Under the pieces are notes generated by a model that did no database searches, was not told the origin of the DNA, and saw nothing but the letters and a program-made list of their open reading frames with translations. Below, piece by piece: positions 22,324 through 42,787 of a stretch of 64,000 nt of DNA. Origin of the DNA: Acidobacteriota bacterium (GTDB lineage Bacteria; Acidobacteriota; Thermoanaerobaculia; Gp7-AA8); NCBI GenBank assembly GCA_019244185.1, contig JAFATB010000023.1:192001-256000 (forward strand), given 5' to 3'. The stretch's first letter is position 1; every line of letters starts with the position of its first letter. A program made the position numbers and the translations under genes.

Positions 22324-23301
22324 TCATGACAGATCGTCGTCGAACGTGCGGTCGCTCATCGGAATCGGATGCTGCAGAAACCAGCGCCGCGAGCGCTCGA
22401 TGTCGTTGCGGATCTGGTTCGTCAGCTCGAGCGCGGAGCGGAACTGCTGCTCGCGCCGCAGCAGCTTGTGAAACGAGAGCCGCACGGTGTCGCCGTAGAC
22501 GTTGGAATCGAAGTCGAGGATGTGGCTCTCGATCGTGGTCGCGTAGTTCTCGTACAGCGTCGGCCGCACGCCGATGTTGGTCACGCCTTCGAACGAGCGC
22601 GAGAAGCTCTCGAAGCGGCACGTGGTGATGTAGACGCCGCCGCCGGGAAAGAGATCGTTCGCGGGATCGACGTTGACGGTCGGGAAGCCCATCTTGCGCC
22701 CGAGGCGGCGGCCGGTCGCGACGCGCCCGTCGATGAAGTACGTGCGGCCGAGGGCGAGCGTCACGACGTGCATCGCGCCTTTGGCGATGGCGTCGCGCAC
22801 GATCGAGCTCGAGACGCGCATGCCGCGCAGCTTCACGTCGTCGATGCCGTGCACGTCGAAGCCGAAGCGCGCGCCGGCGGCGGTGAGCTTGGCGAGATTC
22901 CCCTCGCGTCCCGCGCCGAAACAGAAGTCGCGGCCGATGCGCACTTCGGCGACGCGCAGCGCGTTGACGAGGAACTCTTCGATGAAACGGTCGGCAGTCC
23001 AGCGCGAGAACTCGTGCGAGAAGGGGACGATCAGCAGCGCGTCGACGCCCATCGCGCGCAGCAGCTCTTCCTTCTGCGCGAGCGTGAGAATCTGTTTCGG
23101 CACGCGGTCCGGCGCGACGATCGACAGCGGATGCGGATGAAAGGTGATGACCGCCGACGGACGCCCGAGCTCGCGCGCGCGCGCCACGACGCCCGCGACG
23201 ATCTTCTGATGTCCCACGTGCATCCCGTCGAAGTTGCCGATCGTAGCGACGCAGCCGCGCGGCAGATCGGTCTGACGGAGTGGGTCCTGGATGACGAGCA
23301 T
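22324..23301 (-). CDS. ribF: Bifunctional riboflavin kinase/FAD synthetase
   Basis: Motifs TIGNFDGMHVGH, TFHPHP, GRDFCFG, VSSSIVR, GRKMGFPTVN, NIGVRPT and ESHILDF. Confidence 0.96.
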   Translation of the reverse strand: MLVIQDPLRQTDLPRGCVATIGNFDGMHVGHQKIVAGVVARARELGRPSAVITFHPHPLSIVAPDRVPKQILTLAQKEELLRAMGVDALLIVPFSHEFSRWTADRFIEEFLVNALRVAEVRIGRDFCFGAGREGNLAKLTAAGARFGFDVHGIDDVKLRGMRVSSSIVRDAIAKGAMHVVTLALGRTYFIDGRVATGRRLGRKMGFPTVNVDPANDLFPGGGVYITTCRFESFSRSFEGVTNIGVRPTLYENYATTIESHILDFDSNVYGDTVRLSFHKLLRREQQFRSALELTNQIRNDIERSRRWFLQHPIPMSDRTFDDDLS

Positions 23302-23425
23302 GTGCGGCCGCGCGGAGTGTAGCAAAGGCCCGTCTTATGGCTGGGCATGCCAAGCCCAGATTCGCTATGTTAGGCTGCGGAAGTCCACAATTCATTACAG
23401 CGGTGATTCCTCCTTGGAGGCGAAG

Positions 23426-25396
23426 ATGGAGAAGCCTTCGATGTTCATCGGCTCGTCCCGCGAAGCGTTGCCGATTGCTGAGGCGTTTCGCAACGGACTG
23501 AAGGACCACGTTCAGGTCACGCTCTGGAGCGATCTAGGAGTGTTTCCTCCTGGATTTTTCCCGCTCGAGTCACTCGAGGCGGCGGTCAATGACTTTCCGC
23601 ACGCGCTCATCGTCTTCAAGCCCGAGGACTTGACCACGAAGCGCGAGATCACAAAGTTCACCGCGCGCGACAATGCCGTTTTCGAACTGGGGCTCTTCGT
23701 CGGCCGCCATGGCCGCCGCTCCGCGTTCGTTGCCGTTCCACAGACCGCGGAGATGCATTTCCCGTCCGATCTGCTCGGCCTTGAACCGGTGCGGTACCGC
23801 GCGGTCGACAAGGACGATAAGGTCGAGTCGTACGACGTGAAAGAGGCCTGCGACGCGATTCTCAAAGCGTTGCGTGCGATTCCGCCGAAGCCGCGCACGC
23901 ACCCGCAACCGTCGCCGTTCTGGGACGTCCTGTCCAATCAGATCGTGATCCTCTATGGCGTGGAACACGAGATCAATGTGCATCCACATCCGCGCCACCG
24001 CATCTCTCTTCGCGACCTCGGCACGTCACTCGAGATCCGCGACTTTCTCCAGCGTCAGTACCCGCACAAGATGGTTCGGCTTCTGCCGGCGTCCCAACCA
24101 GGGCTGCCGCAGCAGATGCACGGCGCCGACTTGATTATCGTCGGCGGCTTCGTGACGAATGCCGAATTTGCGAAGCACCGCCACCGATACGAACACTACT
24201 TCCGTCTGAAGATGGGACGGCTGTGCGTTGTCGAAGGGCAACGTATCCATGTACCGGAGTTTCGGCCGCCGGACGGCAGCACGCCGCCGGACGTCCGCGA
24301 TCCGCAGGGAGTGGAGGACTTTCCGACGGAGTGGACGGCACAGGATTTCGGACTCGTCTTCAACGGTCCCCTCCATATGTACGGTCAGAACCGCCGCGTC
24401 GTCGCGATCGCGGGCGTGAAGGGACACGGCACGCACGGCTCGGCGACGTATCTCATCGGCGATTCACCGGCGGTCGACACACAACTGCGCGAGCGGCCAC
24501 TCGAATCGAGAGATACGCTGGAGATCGTCGTCGGCGTGGACGTCGTCAACGACGCGGTCAACCGCTCCGAGGCGCTGACGGTCCGATTCAACGGCGAGTG
24601 CGTCTTCGATGCGCCGAGGTCGCCGTCGCGGCCGTGCGAGTTGAACCGGCCGTGCGACGGCTGCGACTTCGGCGTGAAGCCGGTGGTGCATCCGCGCCTG
24701 CCGTCGAAGATGCTGACGTCGCAAATCCGCGCGATCGTATTTGATCTGGACGACACGCTGATCGATACGTTCGGAACGTTGATCATGCCGCTCGAAATGC
24801 AGGCAGCGCGGCTAATGATCGCCGCGCCAGGCGCACCGATGACGGATGAGAACGCGCTCGCGGCGGCGTTACTGCGTAGCCGTCGCGTGGCGCCGCAGAC
24901 CCTCGAGGCAGATTTGAGGAAGCGCGGATTTCCGCGCGACGTCCTGCAACTTCGCCACGATCTTCTGGAGAAAGTGTCGCTCGAGAACCTCGTGGTGTCG
25001 CCGGAGGTGCGGCAGTTACTCAAGGAACTGGAAGCGCGCTTCGAACTGTACTTGTTGACGGCAGGCAAGCGAGAGTTCCAGCGTGCGAAGATCAAAAAAC
25101 TCGCCATTCGCAGCCACTTCGCGGGCGTGAACATCGTCTCGAACTCTTCCTCCGATGCGAAGAAAGGAATGATCGAACGTCTCGCCGCGCGCCGCGACTA
25201 TAAGAGCGAAAACGTACTGATCGTCGGGAATCGGCTGGACAGCGAGATCGCCGCGGGCAATCGGCTGAATATGCCGACGGTTTGGATTCGTCACGGTGAA
25301 GGCGCCGATCTCAAACCGGGTCCGCATACGGGCATGCCTGATCACGAGATTCGGAGCGTGCTCGATCTTCGTAAGGTTCTGTGGCCGTGGTCGTGA
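23426..25396 (+). CDS. Fusion protein: CAP12/Pycsar-type TIR domain, unassigned middle domain, Cys cluster and HAD-superfamily hydrolase
   Basis: N-terminal MFIGSSREAL...ARDNAVFELGLFVGRHG; middle DLIIVGGFVTN...DFGLV...AGVKGHGT; CELNRPCDGC; C-terminal FDLDDTLIDT, LLTAG and GNRLDSEI. GGAGG precedes ATG 23426. Codon usage is atypical for the window. Confidence 0.85.
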   Translation: MEKPSMFIGSSREALPIAEAFRNGLKDHVQVTLWSDLGVFPPGFFPLESLEAAVNDFPHALIVFKPEDLTTKREITKFTARDNAVFELGLFVGRHGRRSAFVAVPQTAEMHFPSDLLGLEPVRYRAVDKDDKVESYDVKEACDAILKALRAIPPKPRTHPQPSPFWDVLSNQIVILYGVEHEINVHPHPRHRISLRDLGTSLEIRDFLQRQYPHKMVRLLPASQPGLPQQMHGADLIIVGGFVTNAEFAKHRHRYEHYFRLKMGRLCVVEGQRIHVPEFRPPDGSTPPDVRDPQGVEDFPTEWTAQDFGLVFNGPLHMYGQNRRVVAIAGVKGHGTHGSATYLIGDSPAVDTQLRERPLESRDTLEIVVGVDVVNDAVNRSEALTVRFNGECVFDAPRSPSRPCELNRPCDGCDFGVKPVVHPRLPSKMLTSQIRAIVFDLDDTLIDTFGTLIMPLEMQAARLMIAAPGAPMTDENALAAALLRSRRVAPQTLEADLRKRGFPRDVLQLRHDLLEKVSLENLVVSPEVRQLLKELEARFELYLLTAGKREFQRAKIKKLAIRSHFAGVNIVSNSSSDAKKGMIERLAARRDYKSENVLIVGNRLDSEIAAGNRLNMPTVWIRHGEGADLKPGPHTGMPDHEIRSVLDLRKVLWPWS

Positions 25397-25459
25397 CCTG
25401 GGCATCCATGGGCCGCGCGGAAGTCATGTCCTAACGAAGAACTCGTGCCCGGTCGGCGT

Positions 25460-26005
25460 TCACGCTCTTTCACGCTCAACCCGCAGCAAACAGCGCGTGG
25501 CGCCGCGGTGCATGCAGTGCGGCTCGCGGATGGCGATCGCTTCGCCGAAATGCCGCGAGAGGCCGCGGATGATGCCTTTCGCGACGAAGCAGAGGCGGCG
25601 TTCGGACGTGTAGCGGATCGTGATTTCGGTCTCGCTCTCACGCGTCGCCTCGAGGTACGGCGGCGTCGCGCCCGGCTGCTCGACGCGCACGGCGCGGTGC
25701 GCAGTCTCTTCCACGTGTTCGAGCACGTCGAGCGTGCGCCACGCCGGCTTCAGCAGATGGCGGTACATGGCGATGAGGTGCGGCGCGACGAACTCGCCGA
25801 ACGACTCGAGCAGCGCCGGCACTTCCTGCTGCGTCGCGTGCGCGGCCGCGACGACGATCGCCGTCAGTTCCTCATCCGGATACGACGTAATCGGCAGATA
25901 GACGTGCGAGCCGAGCCCCGCCGCCGCGAGGACTTCCGTCCACGCCGCCGCGCCGTACCGCTCCTCGGTGAACTTGCGGAGATGAACGAACATCGTGCCG
26001 TGCAT
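25460..26005 (-). CDS. H-NOX (heme NO/O2-binding, HNOB) domain protein
   Basis: MHG start, YPDEE, FGEF, proximal His (ETAH), PP, YTSER (YxSxR heme motif) and C-terminal Cys residues. Confidence 0.88.
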   Translation of the reverse strand: MHGTMFVHLRKFTEERYGAAAWTEVLAAAGLGSHVYLPITSYPDEELTAIVVAAAHATQQEVPALLESFGEFVAPHLIAMYRHLLKPAWRTLDVLEHVEETAHRAVRVEQPGATPPYLEATRESETEITIRYTSERRLCFVAKGIIRGLSRHFGEAIAIREPHCMHRGATRCLLRVERERA

Positions 26006-26046
26006 GCTCCATGAGAGTGGAGACGCGGGCGAACGGTGACAGCGCG

Positions 26047-26583
26047 CTACTTCGCGGTGAGCTCGTAGTCGAGCGTGCGGTCGAACGTGTCGAAGATCGC
26101 CGCGTCGCTCGCCTCCGGCTCGATCACGGAAATGTGCACGTCGACCCAGCGGTCGTGAAACGCGAAGTAGTAGTTCGCATTGTGCTGGTGCACGGTCTGC
26201 CCCTGGAACTTCGTGACGAGGTCGTACGTGACCTTCACGTACTTTGACGTGTCCGAGACCTTGACCGTCGGCTGCGCGATCATCGGATTGCGCGACGCCT
26301 GCGGCCAGTAGAAGTCGTAGACCTCGCGATTCGTGCGGCCGTTGCCCGACGGCGGCTCGACATAAAACGAGACATTGAAGCGCCCCGAGTTGGCGAGGAA
26401 CGCGTAGGCGCCGTCGTCGCGATGCGAGTCCTTTTTCTTCAGCAGCGGTGGCGCGTCGAACGAGATCGCCCACCCCTCCTTCGGGATCGGAATGCTGACG
26501 GGATCGGCGAGCGCTCCCGACGCGACGAAGAGAACGGCGGCGGCGAGCAACGCGAGTTTCGCGGGTTTCATCGGATTGTTCAT
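26047..26583 (-). CDS. Hypothetical secreted protein
   Basis: Signal peptide MKPAKLALLAAAVLFVASGALA and a beta-rich mature part. Start overlaps the upstream stop. Confidence 0.75.
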   Translation of the reverse strand: MNNPMKPAKLALLAAAVLFVASGALADPVSIPIPKEGWAISFDAPPLLKKKDSHRDDGAYAFLANSGRFNVSFYVEPPSGNGRTNREVYDFYWPQASRNPMIAQPTVKVSDTSKYVKVTYDLVTKFQGQTVHQHNANYYFAFHDRWVDVHISVIEPEASDAAIFDTFDRTLDYELTAK

Positions 26584-28589
26584 GCGAGATGCAGCATCGG
26601 CGCGGGACGCGAGATCTCGTCCCACGCGGGCGCGGCGGCGCCGAGCATCGACGCGAACGCCTCGACCATCTGCGGATCCCACTTGCCGCCCGCGGCCTCG
26701 CGGCGCAGCGTCGCGATCGCGGCCTCGTGCGTGAGCGGTGCGGGGCGATACGCGCGATGCGAGGTGAGCGCGTCGTACGCGTCGACGATCGACAGCAGGC
26801 GCACCTCGTACGGGATCGCGTCGCCGTGCAGGCCGTCGGGATAGCCGCGGCCGTCGTAGCGCTCGTGATGGTGGCGGATCAGCTGCAGCACGGACGTGAG
26901 CGTCGTCAGCGGACGCACCATCTCCTCGCCGATGACCGGATGATCGATGACGCGCATGAACTCCTCGCGCGTCAGCGGCCCCTGCTTGTTGAGCAGCCGC
27001 TCGGGCACGGCGATCTTGCCGATGTCGTGCAGCAGACCGGCGATGCGGATGCGCTCCGCGTCGTTTGCGCTGATGCCGACGTGCAGGGCGAACTTGCGCG
27101 CGAGATCGCCGACGCGCTGCGAGTGGCCGCGCGTGTAACGATCCTTCGCTTCCAATGCCAGCGCCAGCGCGCAGATCACGTTCTGCGTCTGCTCGAGATC
27201 ACCGTGGTACTCCTTGATGCGCAGCAGCGACTGGATGCGCGTGACGAGCTCGAGTCGATGCAGCGGATAGTTGATGAAGTCGTCCGCGCCGGCGACGATC
27301 GCCTCCTGGCGCATCGCGCTGTTGCGGTGCGAGGTCAGCACGATCACCGGCAGGAACTCGAAGCGCGGATCGGCGCGCAGCTGCGCGAGCGTCGACGCGC
27401 CGTCCTGCACCGGCATCACCAGGTCGAGCAGCACGACGTCGATCGGCTCGCGCTCGAGGATCTCCATCGCCTCGCGGCCGTTTTCGGCGAGCGTGAGCTG
27501 CATCCCCGCGTCGCCGATCGTCGCGGCCACGAGCTCGCGGTTCATGGCGTTGTCGTCGACGCAGAGCACGCGCGGCTTCGGCCGCGGGCGCGGACGCATG
27601 TGCTTCGCCGTGACCACGCGCGGCAGCTCCTCCGTGATCGCGGCCGCGAAGAGCTTCACGAGCTCGGGGTCGAACGCGCCGCGCTGCGCCTCGTCGGCGA
27701 GCACGGCCATCGCTTCCGGCTCGCTCACCGCGCGCTCGTGATGGATCTCGTCGAAGCGGTTGGCGATGCCGACGATCTGCGCCTCGAGCGGAATCTCCGC
27801 GCCGCGCAGACGATCGGGATAGCCGTCGCCGTCCCACCGCTCGTGATGCCAGCGCACGATCGGCACGAACTGGCGGAAGGTCATCATCGGCTCGAGGATC
27901 GACGCGCCCATGCGCGTGTGGTCGGCGACGCGGCCGCGCTCCTCGTCGTCGAGCGCCGTCGCGCTGAGCAGATGATCGGGGACGCCGATCATGCCGAGGT
28001 CGTGGAGCATCGCGCCTTTGATGACGGTCTCTTTTTCGTCGGCGGACATGCCGAGCTTGTCGCAGAGATGCGAGGCGTACGACGCGACGCGCTGCACGTG
28101 GCCGATGGTGTGCGCGTCCTTGCTCTCCAGCGCGCTGGTGAGCGTCATGATGATGTTCTCGCTGGAGTCGAGCTCCTTGCGCAGATTGCGGATCTTGATC
28201 AGCGAGCGGATGCGCGTGCGCAGCTCCTCGCGATTGATCGGCTTGTTCAGGAAATCATCGGCGCCGCAGTCGAGCGCGCGGATCTTGTCGTCCGTGCCGG
28301 TGAGCGCCGTGAGCATGAGGATCGGGATCGTGCGTCCCGCGGGCGAGCGTTTGATGAGCCCGCACGCCTCGTAGCCGTCCATGTTCGGCATCATCACGTC
28401 GAGCACGATGATCGACGGGTTGTGGCGCGGGTAGAGCTCGACGGCCTCGCGCCCGTCGCGCGCGAGCACGACGTCGTAGCCCCAGCTCCAGAGATACTCC
28501 TCGAGCAACTGCAGATTCTGCTCGTTGTCATCGACGGCGAGAACGACATCCCGCTCGACGGCCGACGGCTGGACTGCGGCGCTCGACAT
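26580..28589 (-). CDS. Response regulator with tandem REC-HD-GYP-REC-HD-GYP architecture (c-di-GMP phosphodiesterase)
   Basis: Two receiver domains (LDVMMP, LDLVMP) and two HD-GYP domains (HHERWDGDGYP; HDIGK...HHERYDGRGYP). Confidence 0.92.
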   Translation of the reverse strand: MSSAAVQPSAVERDVVLAVDDNEQNLQLLEEYLWSWGYDVVLARDGREAVELYPRHNPSIIVLDVMMPNMDGYEACGLIKRSPAGRTIPILMLTALTGTDDKIRALDCGADDFLNKPINREELRTRIRSLIKIRNLRKELDSSENIIMTLTSALESKDAHTIGHVQRVASYASHLCDKLGMSADEKETVIKGAMLHDLGMIGVPDHLLSATALDDEERGRVADHTRMGASILEPMMTFRQFVPIVRWHHERWDGDGYPDRLRGAEIPLEAQIVGIANRFDEIHHERAVSEPEAMAVLADEAQRGAFDPELVKLFAAAITEELPRVVTAKHMRPRPRPKPRVLCVDDNAMNRELVAATIGDAGMQLTLAENGREAMEILEREPIDVVLLDLVMPVQDGASTLAQLRADPRFEFLPVIVLTSHRNSAMRQEAIVAGADDFINYPLHRLELVTRIQSLLRIKEYHGDLEQTQNVICALALALEAKDRYTRGHSQRVGDLARKFALHVGISANDAERIRIAGLLHDIGKIAVPERLLNKQGPLTREEFMRVIDHPVIGEEMVRPLTTLTSVLQLIRHHHERYDGRGYPDGLHGDAIPYEVRLLSIVDAYDALTSHRAYRPAPLTHEAAIATLRREAAGGKWDPQMVEAFASMLGAAAPAWDEISRPAPMLHLA

Positions 28590-28616: not shown

Positions 28617-29150
28617 TTATACGAACATCTTCGCCTGCGGCGGCGGATACGTGAGCCGCACGCCGTCGATACACGCCATCGGATTGAGCGCATGACGCTT
28701 GAAGGAGTCGGGTCCGACGATGTGCACGACCTCGACGCCACGCCGCACGAGCTCGTCGGAGAGCAGGTTCCGATGACAGCGCCACGGCACCGCTTCCGCG
28801 CACATGACCGCGGTCGCGCGCTCGGACTGCAGCAGCGCATCGAGCGCGCGCTGGAACTCGGGGCTGGCCATGTGATCGGCGTAGCCGCGGAACTGCTCGT
28901 TCTCCCACGCGCCGTTCGGCGAGTCGCGCCGCGGCCTGCGGCGTCCGCCGAGGGCTTCGACGTGGACGTATTCGATGCCGTGCTCGGGCAGCGAGACCGC
29001 GAGCGATTCGCCGGAGAACTGCGGATGGCGGCGCGAGCCGGGATAGCGGCGGCTGTCGGCGAGACGCGCGACGTCATGCTCACGGAGCAGTGCGACGAGC
29101 TCGTCCAGGGTGCGCGTCGAATGGCCGATGGTGTAGATACGGTCGAGCAT
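28617..29150 (-). CDS. DUF488 family protein
   Basis: Motifs IYTIGHSTR, LGGRR, FRGYADHM and MCAEAVPWRCHR. Confidence 0.9.
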   Translation of the reverse strand: MLDRIYTIGHSTRTLDELVALLREHDVARLADSRRYPGSRRHPQFSGESLAVSLPEHGIEYVHVEALGGRRRPRRDSPNGAWENEQFRGYADHMASPEFQRALDALLQSERATAVMCAEAVPWRCHRNLLSDELVRRGVEVVHIVGPDSFKRHALNPMACIDGVRLTYPPPQAKMFV

Positions 29151-34875: not shown

Positions 34876-37356
34876 ATGCGCGAGAACGTTCGTCGACCCG
34901 GTCGTTCGCCTTCCGTAAGGACGGTGCGAGCTTTTCTGGTATGCGTCGCGATCACGTCGTTTGCGGCGATTGCCATCGGTCAGGTCTGCGGCCCGATTCG
35001 GCCGCCCATCACCGCTCCGCCGCCGTCACCGGTTGGCGTATCCGTCGACTACACCGTCGCCTGCATCCCGCCGCCACAAGGACAGTCGTCGACGCTCAGC
35101 AACTGCACGTTCACACCCGTGCTGCCGGAGGAGTCGCGCGCCTATCTGCAGCAATACGAGTGGACGATGGGCATCCTTCCGGCCGACAACTTCAAGCCGG
35201 TATTCTTCACCGTGCAGCCGTATACGTTCCAGTATCCGAACGCCACCGCCACCTATCACACCGCGATCAAAGCCACGTTTTCCACCGGCGAAACGCGCAT
35301 TGTGACCAAGGACGTGACGGTGACGGAGGTGCTAGACCCGCCGTTTTTCGCGTCCAACTCCAATACGTTCTTTCCGAGCGGGAGCGTCACGGGGCTCTGT
35401 ACTGAGTTTGCCACCACGTACGGCGGTCCGCTTGGAGTCCAGGAGTACCGGTACGCGTGGGATTTCGGCGACGGCACGACCTGGCCGTACGGGCCGGTCA
35501 AGACCATCTATCACACGTTTCAGAATCCCGGCATCTACAACGTCACCCTGAAAGTGGTCTCCATCGACAGCGGCCAGGAAGTGACGTACTCGCAATCCAT
35601 CGTTGCGAGGAATGCCGCCCCGTTACCGGTGGTCAATGTCCGCCGCGATGCTCAGGACTCCGCATTGTGGACGTTCGACGCATCCGGCTCGCGCGATGAC
35701 CCGAACCCCGGAAGCGTGACCACCGGACCCACCTGTGGGTACAACACGAACAACGGCATCGTTTCGTACGAATGGGATTTCGGCGACGATCATGTCGGCC
35801 GCGGCTCGAGCGTCGCGCATCGATTCGCGCACGGCGGCACCTATCCGGTGAGCCTGCGGCTCACCGACCGTAATGGACTGACGGCGGCGACCACCGTCAC
35901 CGTGACGGTTCCCAATCAGCCGCCCGTCGCCGCGTTTTCCTTCGACTGTACCCCCGGCACGACCTGCACGTTCGACGCGAGCGCGTCCAGTGACGACGGC
36001 GGCGTGGCATCGTATCTCTGGACGTTCCCTGACGGCACGCAGAGCACGGCGTCGCCCACGCTGCGCAAGACATTTACCGCGCCCGGCGCGTACAACGTGC
36101 AACTGGCGGTCTCGGACGGCTCGCTGACGTCTCCCGTCATTGCGAGAACCGTTCGCGTCGTGGCCGGCGGTCCGCCGCCGCCGTCCGTCTACTACGCCCT
36201 TCCTCCGTGCCGTCTGTACGACTCCGGCAGCGACAGCCCATTGAAGCCGTCGGAGACGCGCACGATCACCGTTGCTCCGAATCTTCGCTGCGGCATTCCG
36301 GGCAATGCCGTCGCCGTGGCCGCGACGGCCACGGTGATCAATCCGAGCGCGGATGGCTCGCTCAGTTACACGTCCCGCGCGAACGGCGTGCAGTCGTCGC
36401 TGAATTTCAACGCCGCCCGAGGGTCGCGCGCGAACGGAGGGATTTACCCGCTCGACGCCGGGAACCTGTCCGTCCTCAATGACTCCGGCGGAACGGCCGG
36501 ACTCACGCTGGACGTCAACGGCTATTTCGCGGCGGTCACCAAATCGACGAGCGCGCAGGCAAATGCCATGACGTTCGTGCCATCTCTCGACGGTTGTTCA
36601 CTGTTCGACGCGCGGACTACACCGGAATTGCGGCTCACCGGTACCGCGACCGCGCGCCTGCAATTGCGCGGGACCTGCGGACTGCCGCGCGACGCGGCCG
36701 CGCTTTTCGTGAATTTCGGCGTCGTCCGTGCCTCGGCCGACCCTCCCGGAATGGCCGGCCTCGCCGCGCACGGTGGAGCGGCGCTGTTCGCGCCGGAGGC
36801 GGGCAGCGCATTCACCTCGGCACGGCCGCCGACGTGGACGACCGCGGTGAACTCTCCGTTCGTCCCCGTCAGAACCAGCAGCGTCGTCGAGCTCGGCGAG
36901 CCGGGCGGTCCCGACGCATGGATGGAGTTCTACGGCGGCGAAGGCTGGATCGATCCGGCCGCCGACCTCGAGGGATATTTCACGGCGTCGACGACGGCCG
37001 GCGGACTTCGCTATTACCCGCTGACGCCGTGCCGCGCCGGCGCGGTCGCATTACAGCCGTCCGCCGCGCGGACGCTGCAGGTTCAGGGAAATTGCGGCGT
37101 ACCGCGCGGCGCGCGGGCGGTCGCGGTCAACGTCATCGCCGCGAACCTGCAGTCCGCATCCGGCGGCAATGTCTGGATCGCCGCCGCCGGACGTGATTTC
37201 CCGTCAGGACCGGCCGTGGCCTATCAGCCCGGCGAGTTCGCAGTTGCGAACGGCGCAATCGTGCCGCTCGCCTCCGGCCAGTCGGATGACCTTGCAGTCG
37301 TTTCCGACGGCAATCCCGCTGTGATCGTCGACGTGTACGGGTACTTCGCACCGTAA
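34876..37356 (+). CDS. Secreted PKD-domain protein with three C-terminal PCR/CGxP/DVxGYF repeats
   Basis: Signal peptide; PKD motifs WDFGDG, WDFGDD and WTFPDG; repeats YYALPPCRLYD..CGIP..LDVNGYF, CSLFD..CGLP..DLEGYF and YYPLTPCR..CGVP..VDVYGYF. Confidence 0.85.
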   Translation: MRENVRRPGRSPSVRTVRAFLVCVAITSFAAIAIGQVCGPIRPPITAPPPSPVGVSVDYTVACIPPPQGQSSTLSNCTFTPVLPEESRAYLQQYEWTMGILPADNFKPVFFTVQPYTFQYPNATATYHTAIKATFSTGETRIVTKDVTVTEVLDPPFFASNSNTFFPSGSVTGLCTEFATTYGGPLGVQEYRYAWDFGDGTTWPYGPVKTIYHTFQNPGIYNVTLKVVSIDSGQEVTYSQSIVARNAAPLPVVNVRRDAQDSALWTFDASGSRDDPNPGSVTTGPTCGYNTNNGIVSYEWDFGDDHVGRGSSVAHRFAHGGTYPVSLRLTDRNGLTAATTVTVTVPNQPPVAAFSFDCTPGTTCTFDASASSDDGGVASYLWTFPDGTQSTASPTLRKTFTAPGAYNVQLAVSDGSLTSPVIARTVRVVAGGPPPPSVYYALPPCRLYDSGSDSPLKPSETRTITVAPNLRCGIPGNAVAVAATATVINPSADGSLSYTSRANGVQSSLNFNAARGSRANGGIYPLDAGNLSVLNDSGGTAGLTLDVNGYFAAVTKSTSAQANAMTFVPSLDGCSLFDARTTPELRLTGTATARLQLRGTCGLPRDAAALFVNFGVVRASADPPGMAGLAAHGGAALFAPEAGSAFTSARPPTWTTAVNSPFVPVRTSSVVELGEPGGPDAWMEFYGGEGWIDPAADLEGYFTASTTAGGLRYYPLTPCRAGAVALQPSAARTLQVQGNCGVPRGARAVAVNVIAANLQSASGGNVWIAAAGRDFPSGPAVAYQPGEFAVANGAIVPLASGQSDDLAVVSDGNPAVIVDVYGYFAP

Positions 37357-37375
37357 GGGTGCACGAGGAAGCGTT

Positions 37376-40300
37376 ATGAAGAGACTACTGTGGGTGATTT
37401 GTGTCCTCGTGTTGGTTCCGGTGGTGGCGCGTGCGAACGACGACCCGGCCACTGCGCGCGGGTTCAAGGCGAACGCCGTGTACGACTCGCACGACATTGA
37501 CTCCGTCAATGCGATGAACGGCACGCTGTCGGTCCATGTGCCGATCGGCGGCCGGTATCCCAGCAACGGAACGCTTTCGTATCAATTCATGCTGTCGTAC
37601 AGCTCGAATTTGTGGGACTGGCGCAGCCACTCGGGAGTGGAACTGGTGAGCCTCGCACAATTCGGCGACGTGTTCGGCGGTGGAGTGGACAATCCGCCGG
37701 CGCCGTCGACCGACGGCCTGGAGAGCTTTCCGGCCCGCGCGTTCAATGCCGGTATCGGCTGGATGGTGTCGCTTGGTGAAGTGCGGGAAACGGTCGGCTC
37801 GCTGAATTATCAGTACGAGTACATCAGCGAAGACGGCGCCGGGCATCCCTTCTATGCGACGCTGCACGGCGACAGCCCATTGCCGGCGCCGGCCGGCACG
37901 GACGTGTTCTATACGCACGATTCGACCTACATCCGCATGCTGGTTCTGGCTCGCGACGCGCAGCGGCGGCCGATCTCGTTCGAGGTGCAGCTGCCGGACG
38001 GCATCCATAAGCGATTCGTCCGCTACGCCTGGCCGGGCGACTCGGAACTGGATCACCGGTTCCTGCTGACGTCGATCGCCGACCCGTTCGGAAACGTTTT
38101 GTACGTGGAGCGAAGCACGCCTCCCGGCACGCCGGCATTGACGCGGCCGCCGGTCGGCTCGACCTGGGTGTGGACGTACAAACAAGCCACGCTCGCGAAC
38201 GCCGACCGTTATGCAAATCCCGATACGGATTCACTGTCGCCATTCCGCACGCACGTGCTGACGTATGCCATCCCGCACTGGTACGAATTGCAATTGAGCA
38301 GCGTGCAGCTGGCCACGGCGGGCGGGCCGGCGACGTACCAGTTCACGTACGATCCGGCCAGCGTGCTGCGCGCCATGAACTCGAACTGGGGAGATCCCGG
38401 CACACAATACGTGCCGTTCGACAGTCAGGGCGGAGTAGCGACTTCGCTTCTGCGACAGATCGACCTGCCGGGAAATGGCGGCTCGTGGGCCTTTCGGTAT
38501 TACGAACGCGTCTGCCGCAGCGGCTCCGGGCCGTGTTATCAGGCGGACGCGTATCCCTATCGCTGGAGCTCGACGTTCACGTACTCGATGAGCAACCGCT
38601 CGGGGAGACTGGCCGAAGTCGACCTGCCGACCGGCGGCGCCGTCAGCTATGAATACGATCGTACCGCCATTCCGACGCGCGGCTGCAATAGCCAGCAGCA
38701 GGCGCGGGAAGGTTTGGGCGTGTCCACTGTCGGCGTTTCGCAGCGCACGGTATGGAAGCACAAACCGAATGGTTCTCCGTCGGATGCGACGAACATCGAC
38801 GGGGAATGGCGCTACGTTCGCACGCCCGGCGCGTGGGTTGCGCTCGATGGCTCGGCATGTAAGTGGCCGAAGGAATTCCTCGCCGCGACGATCGATCCGC
38901 AGGGTACCGTCGCGCTGTCCTTTTTCTCGACCTACATCTCCGATCCGGTGAATCCTGCCGGAGGTTGGACGAACCCGCGCGGATGGGACGTCCGCGAATG
39001 GGGCCTGCCGTTCTCCAGATACGAGTCGGACAACGCCGGCGCCTTTGTCTCGCAGCAGACGTTTGCGTGCGGAACGGCTTTTCCGGAAACGCTCAGTGCG
39101 TCAGACCTGCGTGACGGCGTCCGTAATCTGCTCCCACGATACGCGTCGACGACGACGTGCGGCGCGCCGGTCCGTTCGTATTTCGTCCGCTACGACCTCT
39201 CCAGCGGCTTCGATTGCAGCGCGAACGACAGCGACATCGTCCGCTGCACGCAGCCCAACAGCCGCGCGTACACCACTGTGACTCGCTATGACGACGACGG
39301 CAGTCCGTCAGCGCGGCCGATGTCCATCACCGTCTCGGACGTCTCGTCGTTCGACGGCTTTGGCCACTATCGCTCGACGTTCCAGACCAGTACGAACTTT
39401 CATTTCGCATCGCCGCGGACCGAGATTACGAACTGGAACCCGCGCGGCGACTCTCCGAATTGGATCCTCAATGTCTACGACAAGACGGTGCAGACGGAGG
39501 CGATCGAGGGATCGCCGCAGAATCCGAAAATCGAAATCCGCAAAACAGCGTACACGTTCGACGAAACGACCGGGTGGCTCAAACAGAAGCACGTATTCGC
39601 CACGAACCGCTTTCCGGCATCCAGCCACGTGTCGCCGAGCGACGATCCGGTAGCCGAGTCGATCAACGATGTCGTCGAGACTTACGACCGTTGCCGCGGA
39701 GCCGCCGCGCCGTGCTCGCCTGCGGCGAACGCCGCCAGCGTGGTCATCCGCGAACAGTCGAGCGGCGGCGACGGCAGCCGCAGCACCACGGCGGGCGCCG
39801 AGTTTCAGCGGTTCCGGCAGCTTCAATACGGCGGCCAGGCGGCATTGCGGTACGAGAACAACGGCTCGTCGCTCGTCGTCGAGACGAATACCGTCGATCC
39901 CGCGTCCGGAGCCGTTCTGGCGTCGACCGACACCGCCGGACTGACGACGCGCTATTCCTACGACGCGCTCGGCCGCATCACCGGCATCAGTTACGACAAC
40001 GGCGCGAACACGAGCGTCGCCGCCGGAGCGGCGACGACCATCAACTATTACCCACCCGACGACACGATCAGCGCGCGGGTGACCGTCGACCGCGGCAGCT
40101 TCGAGTCCTCTGAATATCGTTACGATCACCTCGGCCGTCTCAATGACGAACGTCATCAGATTCCACAGGCGGCGGCCGGCGATCCGCAGTTCTCGCAGAA
40201 AACCCGCCAGTACGATCCGCTCGGCCGCACGACGTTCGAATCGACGGTCGCCGCGCTAGGCGATACGCCCTCTGGAACGCAATACGACTACACGGACGCC

Positions 40301-42787
40301 ACCACCCATCGCGTCGATCCGTTCGGCCGTCCGCACCGCATGACCCTTCCCGACCACAAGACGATCGACTTGACGTACAACGGCGTACAGGTGGTGAAGC
40401 GCCTGGTGAGGATCGCGAGCGGAGATCGCACTCTGACGGACGCCGCGAGTTGGACCCACTATGACGCGCTCGGACGGCTCAGGAGAACCGAGGAGTACGA
40501 CGCGCCAGGATCCTTGAATACCACGCCGACGGATTACACGTACGATGCAGGCGGGGAATTGGCGGTGGTGGACATGGCCGGCCAGAAGCGGCGATTCGAT
40601 CGGGATGGCCGCGGCCTCGTCACCAGCGAGACGATGCCGGAGCTCGATCACTCGGTCGGCTACCGGTACGACTCGATGGGCCACCCACTCGAGAAGAATT
40701 ACGGCGGCACCGACTTCGACCTGGCGTTCACTTACGACGTCGCTGGGCGTCCGCTCACCGTTTACCAGCTCTCCAGCGGCAATCCGCTGAAGGCGTTCGA
40801 CTACTACGCGACGAACAACGCCTGTGGAGAAAACGCCGGTTTCGCCAATGGCAAGCTGTACTCGGCGACGCGCTACAACTACATTCGCGATCCTCATGCA
40901 TGGTCGAGCTACTTGCCGTCGCTCAATGTGACCGAGGTGTACAAGTACAACGGCACGAACGGCGCACGTTCCGACGTCGAGACGAGACTGGGCAGGGGCG
41001 AGGTACTGCGCACTTCGTTTGGCTATGACGCGGCGGGAGAACTGACCAGCATTCAGTATCCGAAGTGCGTTGCCGGCTGTACGGCCGTGAACGCGCGGTC
41101 CGTGACGATGGCGTACGATCATGGACGCCTCACCAGCGTCAACGGCTTTGCGTCGCTCCGCTACTTCCCGAACGGCATGATGAGCCGCGTGATCCACGCG
41201 AACGGCGTCCACGACGTCGAAGAGATCGCCAACGGTATGCCGCGGCCGGCGGCGCTGTATACCGAAAACGTGGCCGGCGGCGCGAACTGGAACGCGCCGG
41301 ACGCGCTCAATCAACGCATGAATTACTCGTACGACGGCGCGGGCAACATCGCCGGCATCCAACGCCCGTCGGGCGTGGGGGATTGGTACGCCTACGATCG
41401 CGTTGGACGCCTGATCAAAGCGAACATCGCCGGCGATACGCCGTCCGCGGGTGGTGGCATTACGCAGGATTTTGCATACGACACGTGGGGCAATCTGTTG
41501 TCCACGACGACGAGCGGCGACCCTGCGCCCTCCGCGGCCGCGGTGAATTCCGCGACGAATCGACTCGCCAACGGAACGTATGACGCCATGGGGAATCTGA
41601 CCAGCTTTCAGGTGCTCCGCTACGAATACGATGCGCTCGGCGACCTGACGTTCCTGCGCAGCGTGACCGACACGACTCCGGTCGGCAAGATCTTCGTGTA
41701 CGGCCCCTCCGACGACCGCATCGGCGTGTGGAACTTCCGCACGTCCGACAACACCGTGCGCGAGCTCTGGAGCTTGCGCGGAAACGGTGGCGAAGTCCTC
41801 CGCGATTTCGAAAAGGCCGGCGACGGCGCCTGGACCTGGAGCAAAGACACCGTCTATCGCGGACCAGCGCAGCTCGCAACGATCTCCGCCGCCGCCGACG
41901 GCACCGTCACCCACCACCTCACCATCGATCACCTCGGATCCCCACGCATCGTCACCGACGCCAGCGGCCACCGCGTCGGCACCCACATCCTGTCGCCCTT
42001 CGGCCGCGAGCTCACCACGCCCTCGGACGGCGAACGCCTCCTCTTCACCGGCCACGAGCGCGACGAAAACGATCCGCGCCCGGGAACGCAGCTGGCGGAC
42101 ATGGATTACATGCACGCGCGCTATTACGCGCCCGTGCTGGGGCGGTTTTTGTCGGTGGATCCGGTACTCGATCAGCAGTTCGCCGCGAAGAATCCGCAGG
42201 CGTGGAGCCGCTACTCATACGTCCGCAACAACCCGTTCAATAAGACCGATCTGACTGGAAAATGTGAGGATCCTGGGGGAGCGGGCACGCGACTGTGCAT
42301 CGCAACATTCATCCCGCAGAAAACGTTTGGAGGCTTCAAGGGGGACAATCGAGGACCGAACCCGACTGGCGGAACGTTCAGGACACAGCAGACGATCAAC
42401 GTCACGAAGCCCAGTCTCAGGGGCGTGATTAAAGAGAAGTTCACACCGGGAGTTTCTGTCTTCGGTAGCAAAGCGCGCCAGGCCGAGGTTGCCGGGCAGG
42501 AGGTCTCGCCGAGTTCGAAAGGTATCGTTGCGAAAGCCCAAGCGAGCGACGGGTTGTTGTATGGAGTGGCTCCGAATCTAGAATACGATCTCACTTTTGA
42601 GCCGACGGGAGACGGGGGCCTGAAGGTGACGGGAACGCACACGGCATTTCCTTCGCTGGAAGTGTGGAGATATGAAGATGGCAAAGTGCCGCAACTGCTA
42701 TATCACTACGATGCGTCCGGCAAGGGATTTATGGGTGGCTTAATAGGTATCAACCAGACAATTGAGGTGCCTGAAGATGAGCCGTAG
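37376..42787 (+). CDS. RHS/YD-repeat polymorphic toxin with Sec signal peptide and C-terminal toxin tip
   Basis: Signal peptide; YDALGR-type repeats; RHS core DHLGSPR, FTGHERD, YMHARYY, GRFLSVDP and YSYVRNNPFNKTDLTG; followed by a ~175-aa variable tip. Confidence 0.93.
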   Translation: MKRLLWVICVLVLVPVVARANDDPATARGFKANAVYDSHDIDSVNAMNGTLSVHVPIGGRYPSNGTLSYQFMLSYSSNLWDWRSHSGVELVSLAQFGDVFGGGVDNPPAPSTDGLESFPARAFNAGIGWMVSLGEVRETVGSLNYQYEYISEDGAGHPFYATLHGDSPLPAPAGTDVFYTHDSTYIRMLVLARDAQRRPISFEVQLPDGIHKRFVRYAWPGDSELDHRFLLTSIADPFGNVLYVERSTPPGTPALTRPPVGSTWVWTYKQATLANADRYANPDTDSLSPFRTHVLTYAIPHWYELQLSSVQLATAGGPATYQFTYDPASVLRAMNSNWGDPGTQYVPFDSQGGVATSLLRQIDLPGNGGSWAFRYYERVCRSGSGPCYQADAYPYRWSSTFTYSMSNRSGRLAEVDLPTGGAVSYEYDRTAIPTRGCNSQQQAREGLGVSTVGVSQRTVWKHKPNGSPSDATNIDGEWRYVRTPGAWVALDGSACKWPKEFLAATIDPQGTVALSFFSTYISDPVNPAGGWTNPRGWDVREWGLPFSRYESDNAGAFVSQQTFACGTAFPETLSASDLRDGVRNLLPRYASTTTCGAPVRSYFVRYDLSSGFDCSANDSDIVRCTQPNSRAYTTVTRYDDDGSPSARPMSITVSDVSSFDGFGHYRSTFQTSTNFHFASPRTEITNWNPRGDSPNWILNVYDKTVQTEAIEGSPQNPKIEIRKTAYTFDETTGWLKQKHVFATNRFPASSHVSPSDDPVAESINDVVETYDRCRGAAAPCSPAANAASVVIREQSSGGDGSRSTTAGAEFQRFRQLQYGGQAALRYENNGSSLVVETNTVDPASGAVLASTDTAGLTTRYSYDALGRITGISYDNGANTSVAAGAATTINYYPPDDTISARVTVDRGSFESSEYRYDHLGRLNDERHQIPQAAAGDPQFSQKTRQYDPLGRTTFESTVAALGDTPSGTQYDYTDATTHRVDPFGRPHRMTLPDHKTIDLTYNGVQVVKRLVRIASGDRTLTDAASWTHYDALGRLRRTEEYDAPGSLNTTPTDYTYDAGGELAVVDMAGQKRRFDRDGRGLVTSETMPELDHSVGYRYDSMGHPLEKNYGGTDFDLAFTYDVAGRPLTVYQLSSGNPLKAFDYYATNNACGENAGFANGKLYSATRYNYIRDPHAWSSYLPSLNVTEVYKYNGTNGARSDVETRLGRGEVLRTSFGYDAAGELTSIQYPKCVAGCTAVNARSVTMAYDHGRLTSVNGFASLRYFPNGMMSRVIHANGVHDVEEIANGMPRPAALYTENVAGGANWNAPDALNQRMNYSYDGAGNIAGIQRPSGVGDWYAYDRVGRLIKANIAGDTPSAGGGITQDFAYDTWGNLLSTTTSGDPAPSAAAVNSATNRLANGTYDAMGNLTSFQVLRYEYDALGDLTFLRSVTDTTPVGKIFVYGPSDDRIGVWNFRTSDNTVRELWSLRGNGGEVLRDFEKAGDGAWTWSKDTVYRGPAQLATISAAADGTVTHHLTIDHLGSPRIVTDASGHRVGTHILSPFGRELTTPSDGERLLFTGHERDENDPRPGTQLADMDYMHARYYAPVLGRFLSVDPVLDQQFAAKNPQAWSRYSYVRNNPFNKTDLTGKCEDPGGAGTRLCIATFIPQKTFGGFKGDNRGPNPTGGTFRTQQTINVTKPSLRGVIKEKFTPGVSVFGSKARQAEVAGQEVSPSSKGIVAKAQASDGLLYGVAPNLEYDLTFEPTGDGGLKVTGTHTAFPSLEVWRYEDGKVPQLLYHYDASGKGFMGGLIGINQTIEVPEDEP

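Follow-up and report, generated by a model that had tools for sequence, protein, structure and literature searches.

The window analysed here, a 64,000-nucleotide stretch of contig JAFATB010000023.1 from the genome of an Acidobacteriota bacterium, contains a forward-strand gene for a 656-residue protein (P0002) in which a TIR domain of the CAP12/PycTIR class, a middle domain that belongs to no described family (designated X), and a HAD-IA phosphatase domain follow one another in a single polypeptide. This TIR-X-HAD protein is a candidate immune sensor-effector. The features of the gene are collected in Table 1.

The TIR-X-HAD gene and its domains

The gene is transcribed divergently from ribF (22324-23325, reverse strand) and convergently with an H-NOX gene (from 25460, reverse strand). 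The database copy of the protein (P0003) has 651 residues and starts five residues downstream; the start at 23426 was kept because homologues have N-terminal residues before the FIGSS strand. The GC content at third codon positions (GC3) is 0.77 for the TIR-X-HAD gene as against 0.90 for ribF and lptD, and with a genome mean of 0.868 (standard deviation 0.053) the gene falls in the lowest 6% of the 2418 open reading frames (ORFs) of at least 300 aa. The predicted model of the full-length protein had a predicted local distance difference test score (pLDDT) of 84 and a predicted template modelling score (pTM) of 0.51, with low-confidence linkers at residues 156-158 and 420-427 between the three domains.

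Table 1. Position, strand and basis of assignment of the features of the TIR-X-HAD gene and its insert, in window coordinates
Feature	Position	Strand	Basis
Lineage-specific 3.25-kb insert: TIR-X-HAD gene, H-NOX gene and signal-peptide protein gene	23326..26579	.	Lies between ribF and the RR-HD-GYP gene
Shine-Dalgarno sequence GGAGG	23416..23420	+	Read in the sequence; 5-nt spacer to the ATG
Coding sequence of the 656-aa TIR-X-HAD protein P0002	23426..25396, stop codon included	+	ORF list, translation
TIR domain, CAP12/PycTIR class, residues 1-150	23426..23875	+	Pfam, PADLOC and PDB matches
Codon of E87, putative catalytic Glu in RDNAVFELG	23684..23686	+	Aligned with the Glu of vFEfG in Cap12 and PycTIR chains
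Domain X, residues ~158-420, alpha/beta, no described family	23897..24685	+	No profile or PDB sequence match
Codon of C267 (GRLC), fourth invariant Cys	24224..24226	+	Invariant in A1
C404-x5-C410-x2-C413 cluster at the end of X	24635..24664	+	Invariant in A1
HAD-IA phosphatase domain with helical cap, residues 434-656	24725..25393	+	HAD_2, Hydrolase and HAD Pfam matches
HAD motif I, D440-L-D442-D443-T444, nucleophile and general acid	24743..24757	+	Invariant in A1; aligned with NANP FDLDNT
Non-canonical HAD motif IV, G601-N602-R-L-D605-S-E607	25226..25246	+	Aligned with NANP VGDTLETD and PH1655 VGDRLYSD

The N-terminal domain matched the Pfam family PF10137 (CAP12-PCTIR_TIR) over residues 6-124 (E 1.2e-21; 77.4 bits against a gathering cut-off of 24.7), and PADLOC models of TIR effectors matched it at E 4.6e-40 (PDLC00731), E 1e-36 (another such model) and E 1.1e-31 (the PycTIR model). 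The nearest solved chains were those of the Cap12 TIR-STING proteins 9lmq (E 2.2e-16) and 7un8 (E 3.5e-9) and of PycTIR 8jsj (E 3e-13). The stretch RDNxVFE(L/F)G was aligned residue for residue across these three chains and the window protein at its E87, and each of the 25 rows with a TIR in the family alignment A1 retains the Glu; P0052, a more distant member, does not. The Glu at this position is the catalytic residue of TIR-STING proteins and the putative one here, and the TIR-X-HAD protein is predicted to be an NADase.

Domain X, ~265 aa long, was without a Pfam match (residues ~155-430), and the NCBIfam and PADLOC models that matched the protein covered its TIR and HAD parts only. No PDB chain was found at E up to 10 using either the X sequence or a ten-row X profile. 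An AlphaFold2 model of X alone (mean pLDDT 91.2, pTM 0.90) consists of two halves, the first alpha/beta and the second composed of long beta hairpins and helices. Using Foldseek with this model, no solved structure in the PDB and no entry of the viral fold library BFVD was matched at E<1e-3, and the STING, SAVED, CARF, SLOG and cNMP-binding folds were all absent from the listed PDB matches. BcsB, the best Foldseek match (E 1.2e-3, template modelling (TM) score 0.36, root-mean-square deviation 12 A), was discarded as too weak, and a SLOG/LOG-like fold, considered on account of the loops GG...N and AG....GT, was also dropped, with no LOG, DprA or ThsA fold among the listed Foldseek matches. The family PF05124 (S_layer_C) recurred weakly in three distant relatives (E 0.002-0.009, below cut-off), its Atlas feature score of 0.82 was under the 0.9 bar, and it is retained as a lead only. 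Structural look-alikes of X in the Atlas (TM scores 0.61-0.65) belong to unnamed clusters, some with a helix-turn-helix (HTH), and are not independent evidence.

The invariant residues of X in A1 are W166, S194, R196, D197, D235, G240, G241, N245, R265, D307, R323, G330, G333 and T336, and X contains two glycine-rich strand-to-helix loops, VGGFVTN and AGVKGHGT. C267 and the C-terminal Cys triad co-occur, as judged by pattern, in 47 of 50 proteins of the X-HAD clade, and both are absent from all nine distant X relatives that have transmembrane (TM) segments and lack the C-terminal tail. From this pattern of conservation, C267, C404, C410 and C413 probably form a Cys4 metal (Zn) site clasping X. 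A homodimer prediction with two copies of X scored 0.11 against a mark of 0.42 and speaks neither for nor against oligomerisation.

The C-terminal domain matched Pfam HAD_2 at residues 437-621 (E 1e-11). Its best NCBIfam model was TIGR02253 (E 1.8e-20; 73.7 bits, below the cut-off of 169.75), its nearest solved relatives were N-acylneuraminate-9-phosphatase (NANP/HDHD4; 2gfh, E 1.1e-12), PH1655 (2hoq) and YfnB, and in a Foldseek search with the full-length model the HAD part was matched to NANP 2w4m (E 5.9e-14). Pyrimidine nucleotidases such as YjjG are among the nearest named HAD families. The NANP/HDHD4, PH1655 and YfnB/YjjG phosphatases are the best matches in both sequence and fold and have HAD-IA motifs I-III and the helical cap in common with the window protein, in which D440, D442, T444 and K579 are invariant and T545 is nearly so (A1, aligned to NANP and PH1655). 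The window's domain differs from these phosphatases in being fused to TIR and X, in its TIGR02253 score, and in motif IV. This motif usually takes the form DD, GDxxxD or GDxxxxD and has a metal-binding Asp (PMC12715507). The family has VGNRLDSE where NANP has VGDTLETD and PH1655 has VGDRLYSD, which places Asn602 and Glu607 at Asp positions and adds D605 as an extra acidic residue. G601, N602, R603, D605 and E607 are invariant over 30 rows of A1, and the pattern GN..D.E was matched in 39 of the 42 proteins having HAD motif I or IV. The three unmatched proteins are P0013 and two shorter proteins, P0056 and P0059, in which the HAD match ends after ~90-110 residues.

Much of the initial annotation, which had been made from the sequence alone, agrees with these results. 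It had described a gene with its own Shine-Dalgarno sequence, with more A/T-ending codons than its neighbours and in an orientation opposite to both flanks, and a protein having a CAP12/Pycsar-type TIR domain with the Glu of RDNxxFELG intact, a C-x5-C-x2-C cluster (which proved to be invariant and to be accompanied by C267) and a HAD domain. Its middle domain, which it could assign to none of the STING, SAVED or cNMP-binding families, lay outside them in the Pfam, PDB and listed Foldseek matches as well and had no family in Pfam, NCBIfam, PADLOC or PDB; the size given for that domain, ~230 aa, was too small.

Distribution, N-terminal module exchange and the wider X superfamily

The family is rare. 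A word-indexed protein search returned 42 proteins at E up to 0.001, and the full-length TIR-X-HAD arrangement was present in 24 non-self clusters (93-100% of the length aligned, 35-55% identity), almost all of them metagenomic. When 1.84 billion representatives were searched in HMMER using the X profile, 58 proteins reached E up to 0.001, of which 42 reached E up to 1e-10. Among 185,579 species, with one genome scanned by pattern for each, three loci were confirmed, all in metagenome-assembled genomes of Acidobacteriota, and a metagenome scan for the family gave 10 loci. The contigs hosting homologues range from 37% to 70% GC. X was matched in 0 of 24 genomes of the same genus, one of which (G002) is unpublished; matches to the query were confined to the TIR part in 10 of these genomes and to the HAD part in 1. 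Two loci (L009 and L015) from two species of the gp4 acidobacterial lineage are syntenic; the target proteins are 66% identical and the flanks 75-80%, so the target evolves faster than its neighbours.

Within the family, X-HAD is a constant core to which a variable N-terminal module is attached. The PF10137 TIR is present in most members, TIR_2 (PF13676) takes its place in P0054, P0065 and P0072, and one or two hydrophobic segments, called by a Kyte-Doolittle window only, do so in nine representatives (P0029, P0030, P0031, P0050, P0053, P0059, P0060, P0061 and P0063). P0068 carries an HTH_3 module, and its HAD motif I is decayed. A maximum likelihood tree of the core was constructed with a quick search from 39 rows with complete core, fragments and HAD-less forms being excluded. 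At least six changes of N-terminal type are required on this tree, in which P0068 and P0061 are long branches; the possible minimum is three changes and the mean of shuffled assignments is 9.5. The TIR_2 protein P0054 is nested in a membrane-segment clade with 99% support in the Shimodaira-Hasegawa-like approximate likelihood ratio test (SH-aLRT). Mixing and matching of TIR or TM modules is a pattern described for conflict systems (10.64898/2026.01.15.699771).

A split form of the protein was observed on a metagenome contig of 37% GC (L013:835-2872), where a TIR-X gene (442 aa) is followed by a separate gene for a 235-aa HAD protein. The HAD gene begins two bases past the TIR-X stop (TAG-A-ATG) and keeps the GN..D.E motif. 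This translational coupling of adjacent but separate TIR-X and HAD genes indicates that the parts are functionally linked. Several TIR-X representatives of ~440 aa may be split forms too, or may come from cut contigs.

Domain X also occurs beyond this family. The weakest matches to the X profile were proteins of 240-270 aa consisting of an N-terminal hydrophobic segment and X, with neither the Cys tail nor HAD. Comparison of A3 with A4 using hhalign gave distant X homology (probability 99.5%, E 1.6e-22, 194 columns), and among 400 other genomes from the window's phylum, 22 (about 5%) had a match to a distant-X profile. Twenty-four ORFs with distant X were recovered, and in 19 of them a hydrophobic segment precedes X, after a conserved N-terminal region of ~100 aa. 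At loci L034-L056 in these 22 genomes, the proteins are 410-500 aa long and comprise an N-terminal region resembling LKE..IG.EVFGR...YD...D..VR, one hydrophobic segment and a C-terminal X. A Pfam scan of 10 of the 24 ORFs found nine without any family.

One distant relative (L049:1417-2766, reverse strand, genome G137) is a 449-aa protein with DUF4062 (PF13271) at residues 15-108 (E 4.1e-9) and X at residues 220-422, and it matches the PADLOC candidate PDC-S60. In Swarozyc and Evangelion, two single-gene defence systems, DUF4062 is described as a TIR-like NADase (10.64898/2026.05.01.722283, 10.64898/2026.06.25.731849). In another genome (G177; L045:226-2091, forward strand), a 621-aa protein carries its C-terminal X behind ~390 uncharacterised residues. 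A cyclase-like appearance of the first ~150 of these, noticed by eye, was dropped because there was no Pfam match.

Genomic context and acquisition

The insert of Table 1 lies upstream of ribF, between this gene and one for a response regulator with an HD-GYP domain (RR-HD-GYP). In the congener G023 these two genes are ~120 bp apart, as against 3.25 kb in the window, and tblastn searches of the equivalent regions in five congeners detected none of the insert's three genes. Scans around the insert found no promoter or terminator above chance and no flanking repeats. The TIR-X-HAD gene was acquired horizontally, as its absence from all 24 congeners, its low GC3 and its position in a lineage-specific insert attest; horizontal acquisition had been proposed in the initial annotation.

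The slot between ribF and RR-HD-GYP is variable in the genus (L027-L031), measuring ~120 bp in G023 and 1.6-5.7 kb in the others, and its cargo in congeners comprises FG-GAP/Ig-like proteins and peptidase S58, the latter sometimes accompanied by DUF3224. In G007 there is no RR-HD-GYP ortholog beside ribF, and a peptidase S58 gene and a gene for a DUF5916 protein lie upstream of ribF. The genes of the window around the target encode, in order, a sulfatase-TPR protein, a methyltransferase, LptD, RibF, the target, H-NOX, the signal-peptide protein, RR-HD-GYP, a DUF488 protein, a fatty-acid desaturase, Crp, an aminotransferase and a thiolase.

The 337-aa ORF at 25460-26473 (reverse strand) is over-extended: its first 140 codons have a GC3 of 0.39 and the rest one of 0.84. 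The H-NOX (HNOB/V4R) gene proper probably begins near 26005, at MHGTMFVHL, and a separate gene in another frame (26047-26682, reverse strand; GC3 0.84) encodes the protein with a signal-peptide-like N-terminus. Both genes belong to the insert that holds the target and lie directly downstream of the RR-HD-GYP regulator gene. The DUF488 gene (28617-29150, reverse strand), located between the RR-HD-GYP and fatty-acid desaturase genes, is conserved in congeners. About 10 kb from the target, at 34876-42787 on the forward strand, a gene for a PKD-domain protein (826 aa) is followed by one for an 1803-aa RHS-repeat protein (GC3 0.80 and 0.78, respectively, against the mean of 0.87); this locus may be of the polymorphic-toxin type.

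No SMODS nucleotidyltransferase (the cGAS/DncV-like, or CD-NTase, family PF18144) was matched in the 98.9%-complete genome, and none is present among the annotated neighbours. The only class III cyclase of the genome is on contig C14, and the window is on C26. CARF, PUA-like and calcineurin-CE domains were absent from the Pfam results for the protein (E up to 1) and for its neighbours. The description of the locus in the initial annotation as a one-gene arrangement with no cyclase nearby is supported.

A candidate immune sensor-effector and its alternatives

The reading favoured here, held at a little under even confidence, is that TIR-X-HAD is a cytoplasmic single-polypeptide abortive-infection (anti-phage) sensor-effector, horizontally acquired. 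X would be its regulatory module, a sensor and/or an assembly switch clasped by the probable Cys4 metal site, and would hold the two catalytic domains silent until a trigger, either a phage protein or a nucleotide-like ligand, arrives. On activation, the CAP12/PycTIR-class TIR would hydrolyse NAD+ and the C-terminal HAD-IA domain would remove phosphate from nucleotides in the manner of the HAD effectors in Chp and PUA-Cal-HAD, and the two activities together would starve the infected cell. X is read as the switch and TIR and HAD as the effectors because of the TIR class, identified by matches in Pfam, PADLOC and PDB and not known outside immune NADase effectors, the exchange of N-terminal modules on a constant core, the DUF4062-X relative, the sporadic horizontal distribution, and the precedents for HAD domains as nucleotide-depleting immune effectors. 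HAD domains have been shown experimentally to be immune effectors that act on ATP, dATP or deoxynucleoside triphosphates (PMC12715507; 10.64898/2026.01.15.699771).

The TIR-X-HAD architecture was not found described in full-text literature searches, the coverage of which excluded subscription journals and supplements; several known systems resemble parts of it. Cap12, the TIR-STING protein of the cyclic oligonucleotide-based antiphage signalling system (CBASS), and PycTIR, of the pyrimidine cyclase system for antiphage resistance (Pycsar), have in common with it the PF10137 TIR, the motif of the catalytic Glu and the layout of sensor and TIR in one polypeptide. Unlike them, TIR-X-HAD lacks a STING or cNMP-binding domain and is not paired with a cyclase; X occupies the position of the sensor, and HAD is added. 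The NCBIfam Cap12 equivalogs NF050172 and NF050171 scored 79.4 and 55.1 bits against a cut-off of 450 and were aligned with the TIR part only, and cNMP_binding had no Pfam match in the protein. Swarozyc and Evangelion are likewise single proteins with an N-terminal TIR-like NADase, a C-terminal auxiliary or sensor region and horizontal spread. Their NADase is DUF4062 whereas that of the window protein is a PF10137 TIR (PF13271 had no match in it); a distant X homologue is fused to DUF4062 (L049).

For the HAD domain, the closest functional precedents are Chp and PUA-Cal-HAD. Chp, a type III CRISPR effector of HAD-4TM-CARF composition, dephosphorylates ATP, dATP and IMP and is still toxic with weakened HAD catalysis (PMC12715507). 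Chp resembles the window protein, with its putative sensor X, in joining a HAD phosphatase to a sensor domain, and its transmembrane segments have a counterpart in the membrane-segment variants of the family; the order of domains differs (HAD-4TM-CARF as opposed to TIR/TM-X-HAD), TIR-X-HAD has neither CARF nor a CRISPR context, and the two HAD domains are likened by description only. In PUA-Cal-HAD, a separate HAD protein turns dATP into dADP on a ligand-triggered filament (10.64898/2026.01.15.699771). A HAD is tied there to a sensor-bearing partner and may be encoded by a separate adjacent gene, an arrangement comparable to the split form L013, and the logic of ligand-triggered assembly and nucleotide depletion is, by analogy, the one proposed for TIR-X-HAD. 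The differences are motif IV, which is GDxxxxD (G204, D205, D210) in PUA-Cal-HAD and GNxxDxE here, the additional TIR of the window protein, and its lack of PUA-like and calcineurin-CE domains in the Pfam scan.

Several observations weigh against a defence role. The main rival, considered rather unlikely on balance, is a non-immune accessory protein of signalling or metabolism. According to this explanation, X is a general regulator and the TIR-like and HAD domains process metabolites derived from NAD or nucleotides, for example by cleaving an N-glycoside and then dephosphorylating the product in normal physiology. It rests on the lack of defence neighbours, the synteny in one lineage and the many X proteins without effectors. 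No defence genes were found beside the TIR-X-HAD gene in any context examined (the window and the homologue loci), where the flanks are of housekeeping or signalling type, and none of nine neighbours in L010 and L011 matched PADLOC. The neighbours of the homologues are LysR, aminotransferase V and a BadF-type ATPase in L009 and L015, patatin in L011 and proteins without a Pfam family in L010. The conserved order of L009 and L015 beside housekeeping genes looks like vertical inheritance. The cargo of the slot in congeners does not consist of defence genes, and the slot, variable as it is, is not visibly a defence hotspot. Most X proteins of the phylum scan (in 22 of 400 other genomes) are composed of the conserved N-terminal region, a hydrophobic segment and X, with no effector domain, and X may be a general signalling domain; an HTH-X form (P0068) also exists. 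The nearest relatives of the HAD domain (NANP, YfnB/YjjG) are metabolic phosphatases. At the positions of the metal-binding Asp residues of NANP, PH1655 and the PUA-Cal-HAD enzyme, motif IV has Asn and Glu, and the phosphatase may be slow or altered. However, in a metabolic TIR-HAD pair one would not expect membrane segments or an HTH module to stand in for the TIR on the same core, the PF10137 members of known function (Cap12, PycTIR) are immune NADases, and a core function is hard to reconcile with a gene so extremely rare, missing from 24 of 24 congeners and atypical in its codon usage.

The initial annotation had itself proposed a different immune mechanism that would unite sensor, effector and reset in one gene: X would respond to a nucleotide second messenger, the TIR would serve as the NADase effector, and a phosphorylated nucleotide would be generated, removed or sensed by the HAD. 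This TIR class is indeed fused to such sensors in CBASS and Pycsar, with Cap12 and PycTIR the nearest solved relatives; the two glycine-rich loops of X and its invariant Arg, Lys and Asp are of a kind that could accommodate a ligand with phosphate groups, and YjjG-type pyrimidine nucleotidases stand close to the HAD. The mechanism is nevertheless judged improbable, as neither the window nor the examined homologue loci have a cyclase or CD-NTase next to the gene, the genome lacks SMODS and has its class III cyclase on another contig, and X resembles none of the STING, SAVED, CARF, SLOG and cNMP-binding folds in the listed Foldseek, PDB and Pfam results. A reset enzyme fused to the receptor would moreover destroy its own signal, an arrangement for which no precedent was found in the literature searched; given Chp and PUA-Cal-HAD, a nucleotide-depleting co-effector is the more economical role for the HAD. 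The unusual motif IV is neutral with regard to this mechanism. What is left of the proposal that X is a new ligand sensor is the sensing or regulatory role, to which the exchange of N-terminal modules on a constant X-HAD core lends indirect support, and not the sensing of a second messenger.

The altered motif IV also allows for two further explanations, both given a slim chance. In one, the HAD is a receiver-like sensor, phospho-aspartyl or ligand-binding, that controls X and the N-terminal module and is not a turnover enzyme. The invariant replacement of Asp by Asn at the metal position, with the nucleophile motif DxD kept, would agree with this, as would the constant company of the HAD and the Cys-clasped X while the N-terminal module changes; against it, Asn can still ligate Mg2+, D605 is close by, and low activity may suffice for an effector, as the toxicity of Chp with weakened catalysis illustrates (PMC12715507). 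The other, a comparably long shot, extends this to the whole X-HAD core as a self-contained danger sensor. Here the HAD would either take up a phosphoryl group from an infection-specific phosphorylated nucleotide or bind that nucleotide tightly, and the Cys4-clasped X would relay the event, assemble and fire whichever module is attached (PF10137 TIR, TIR_2, membrane segments or HTH), making X a new sensor/switch superfamily common to immune and signalling proteins. If so, the HAD would work as a receiver domain does on phosphorylation, and not as a turnover phosphatase.

Should the TIR-X-HAD gene be a defence gene, as the favoured sensor-effector reading has it, X would be a new sensor/switch superfamily added to the small set that controls TIR NADases, and the protein would be a compact one-gene system and, as far as the literature was searched, the first single polypeptide to unite a HAD phosphatase effector with one that depletes NAD+. 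Should it not be one, it represents a rare domain family all the same, with TM-X relatives in about 5% of the phylum genomes sampled. In either case, the invariant change in motif IV is an oddity of HAD enzymology, and the repeated exchange of N-terminal modules on the X-HAD core is a natural experiment on which part of the protein senses and which part executes.

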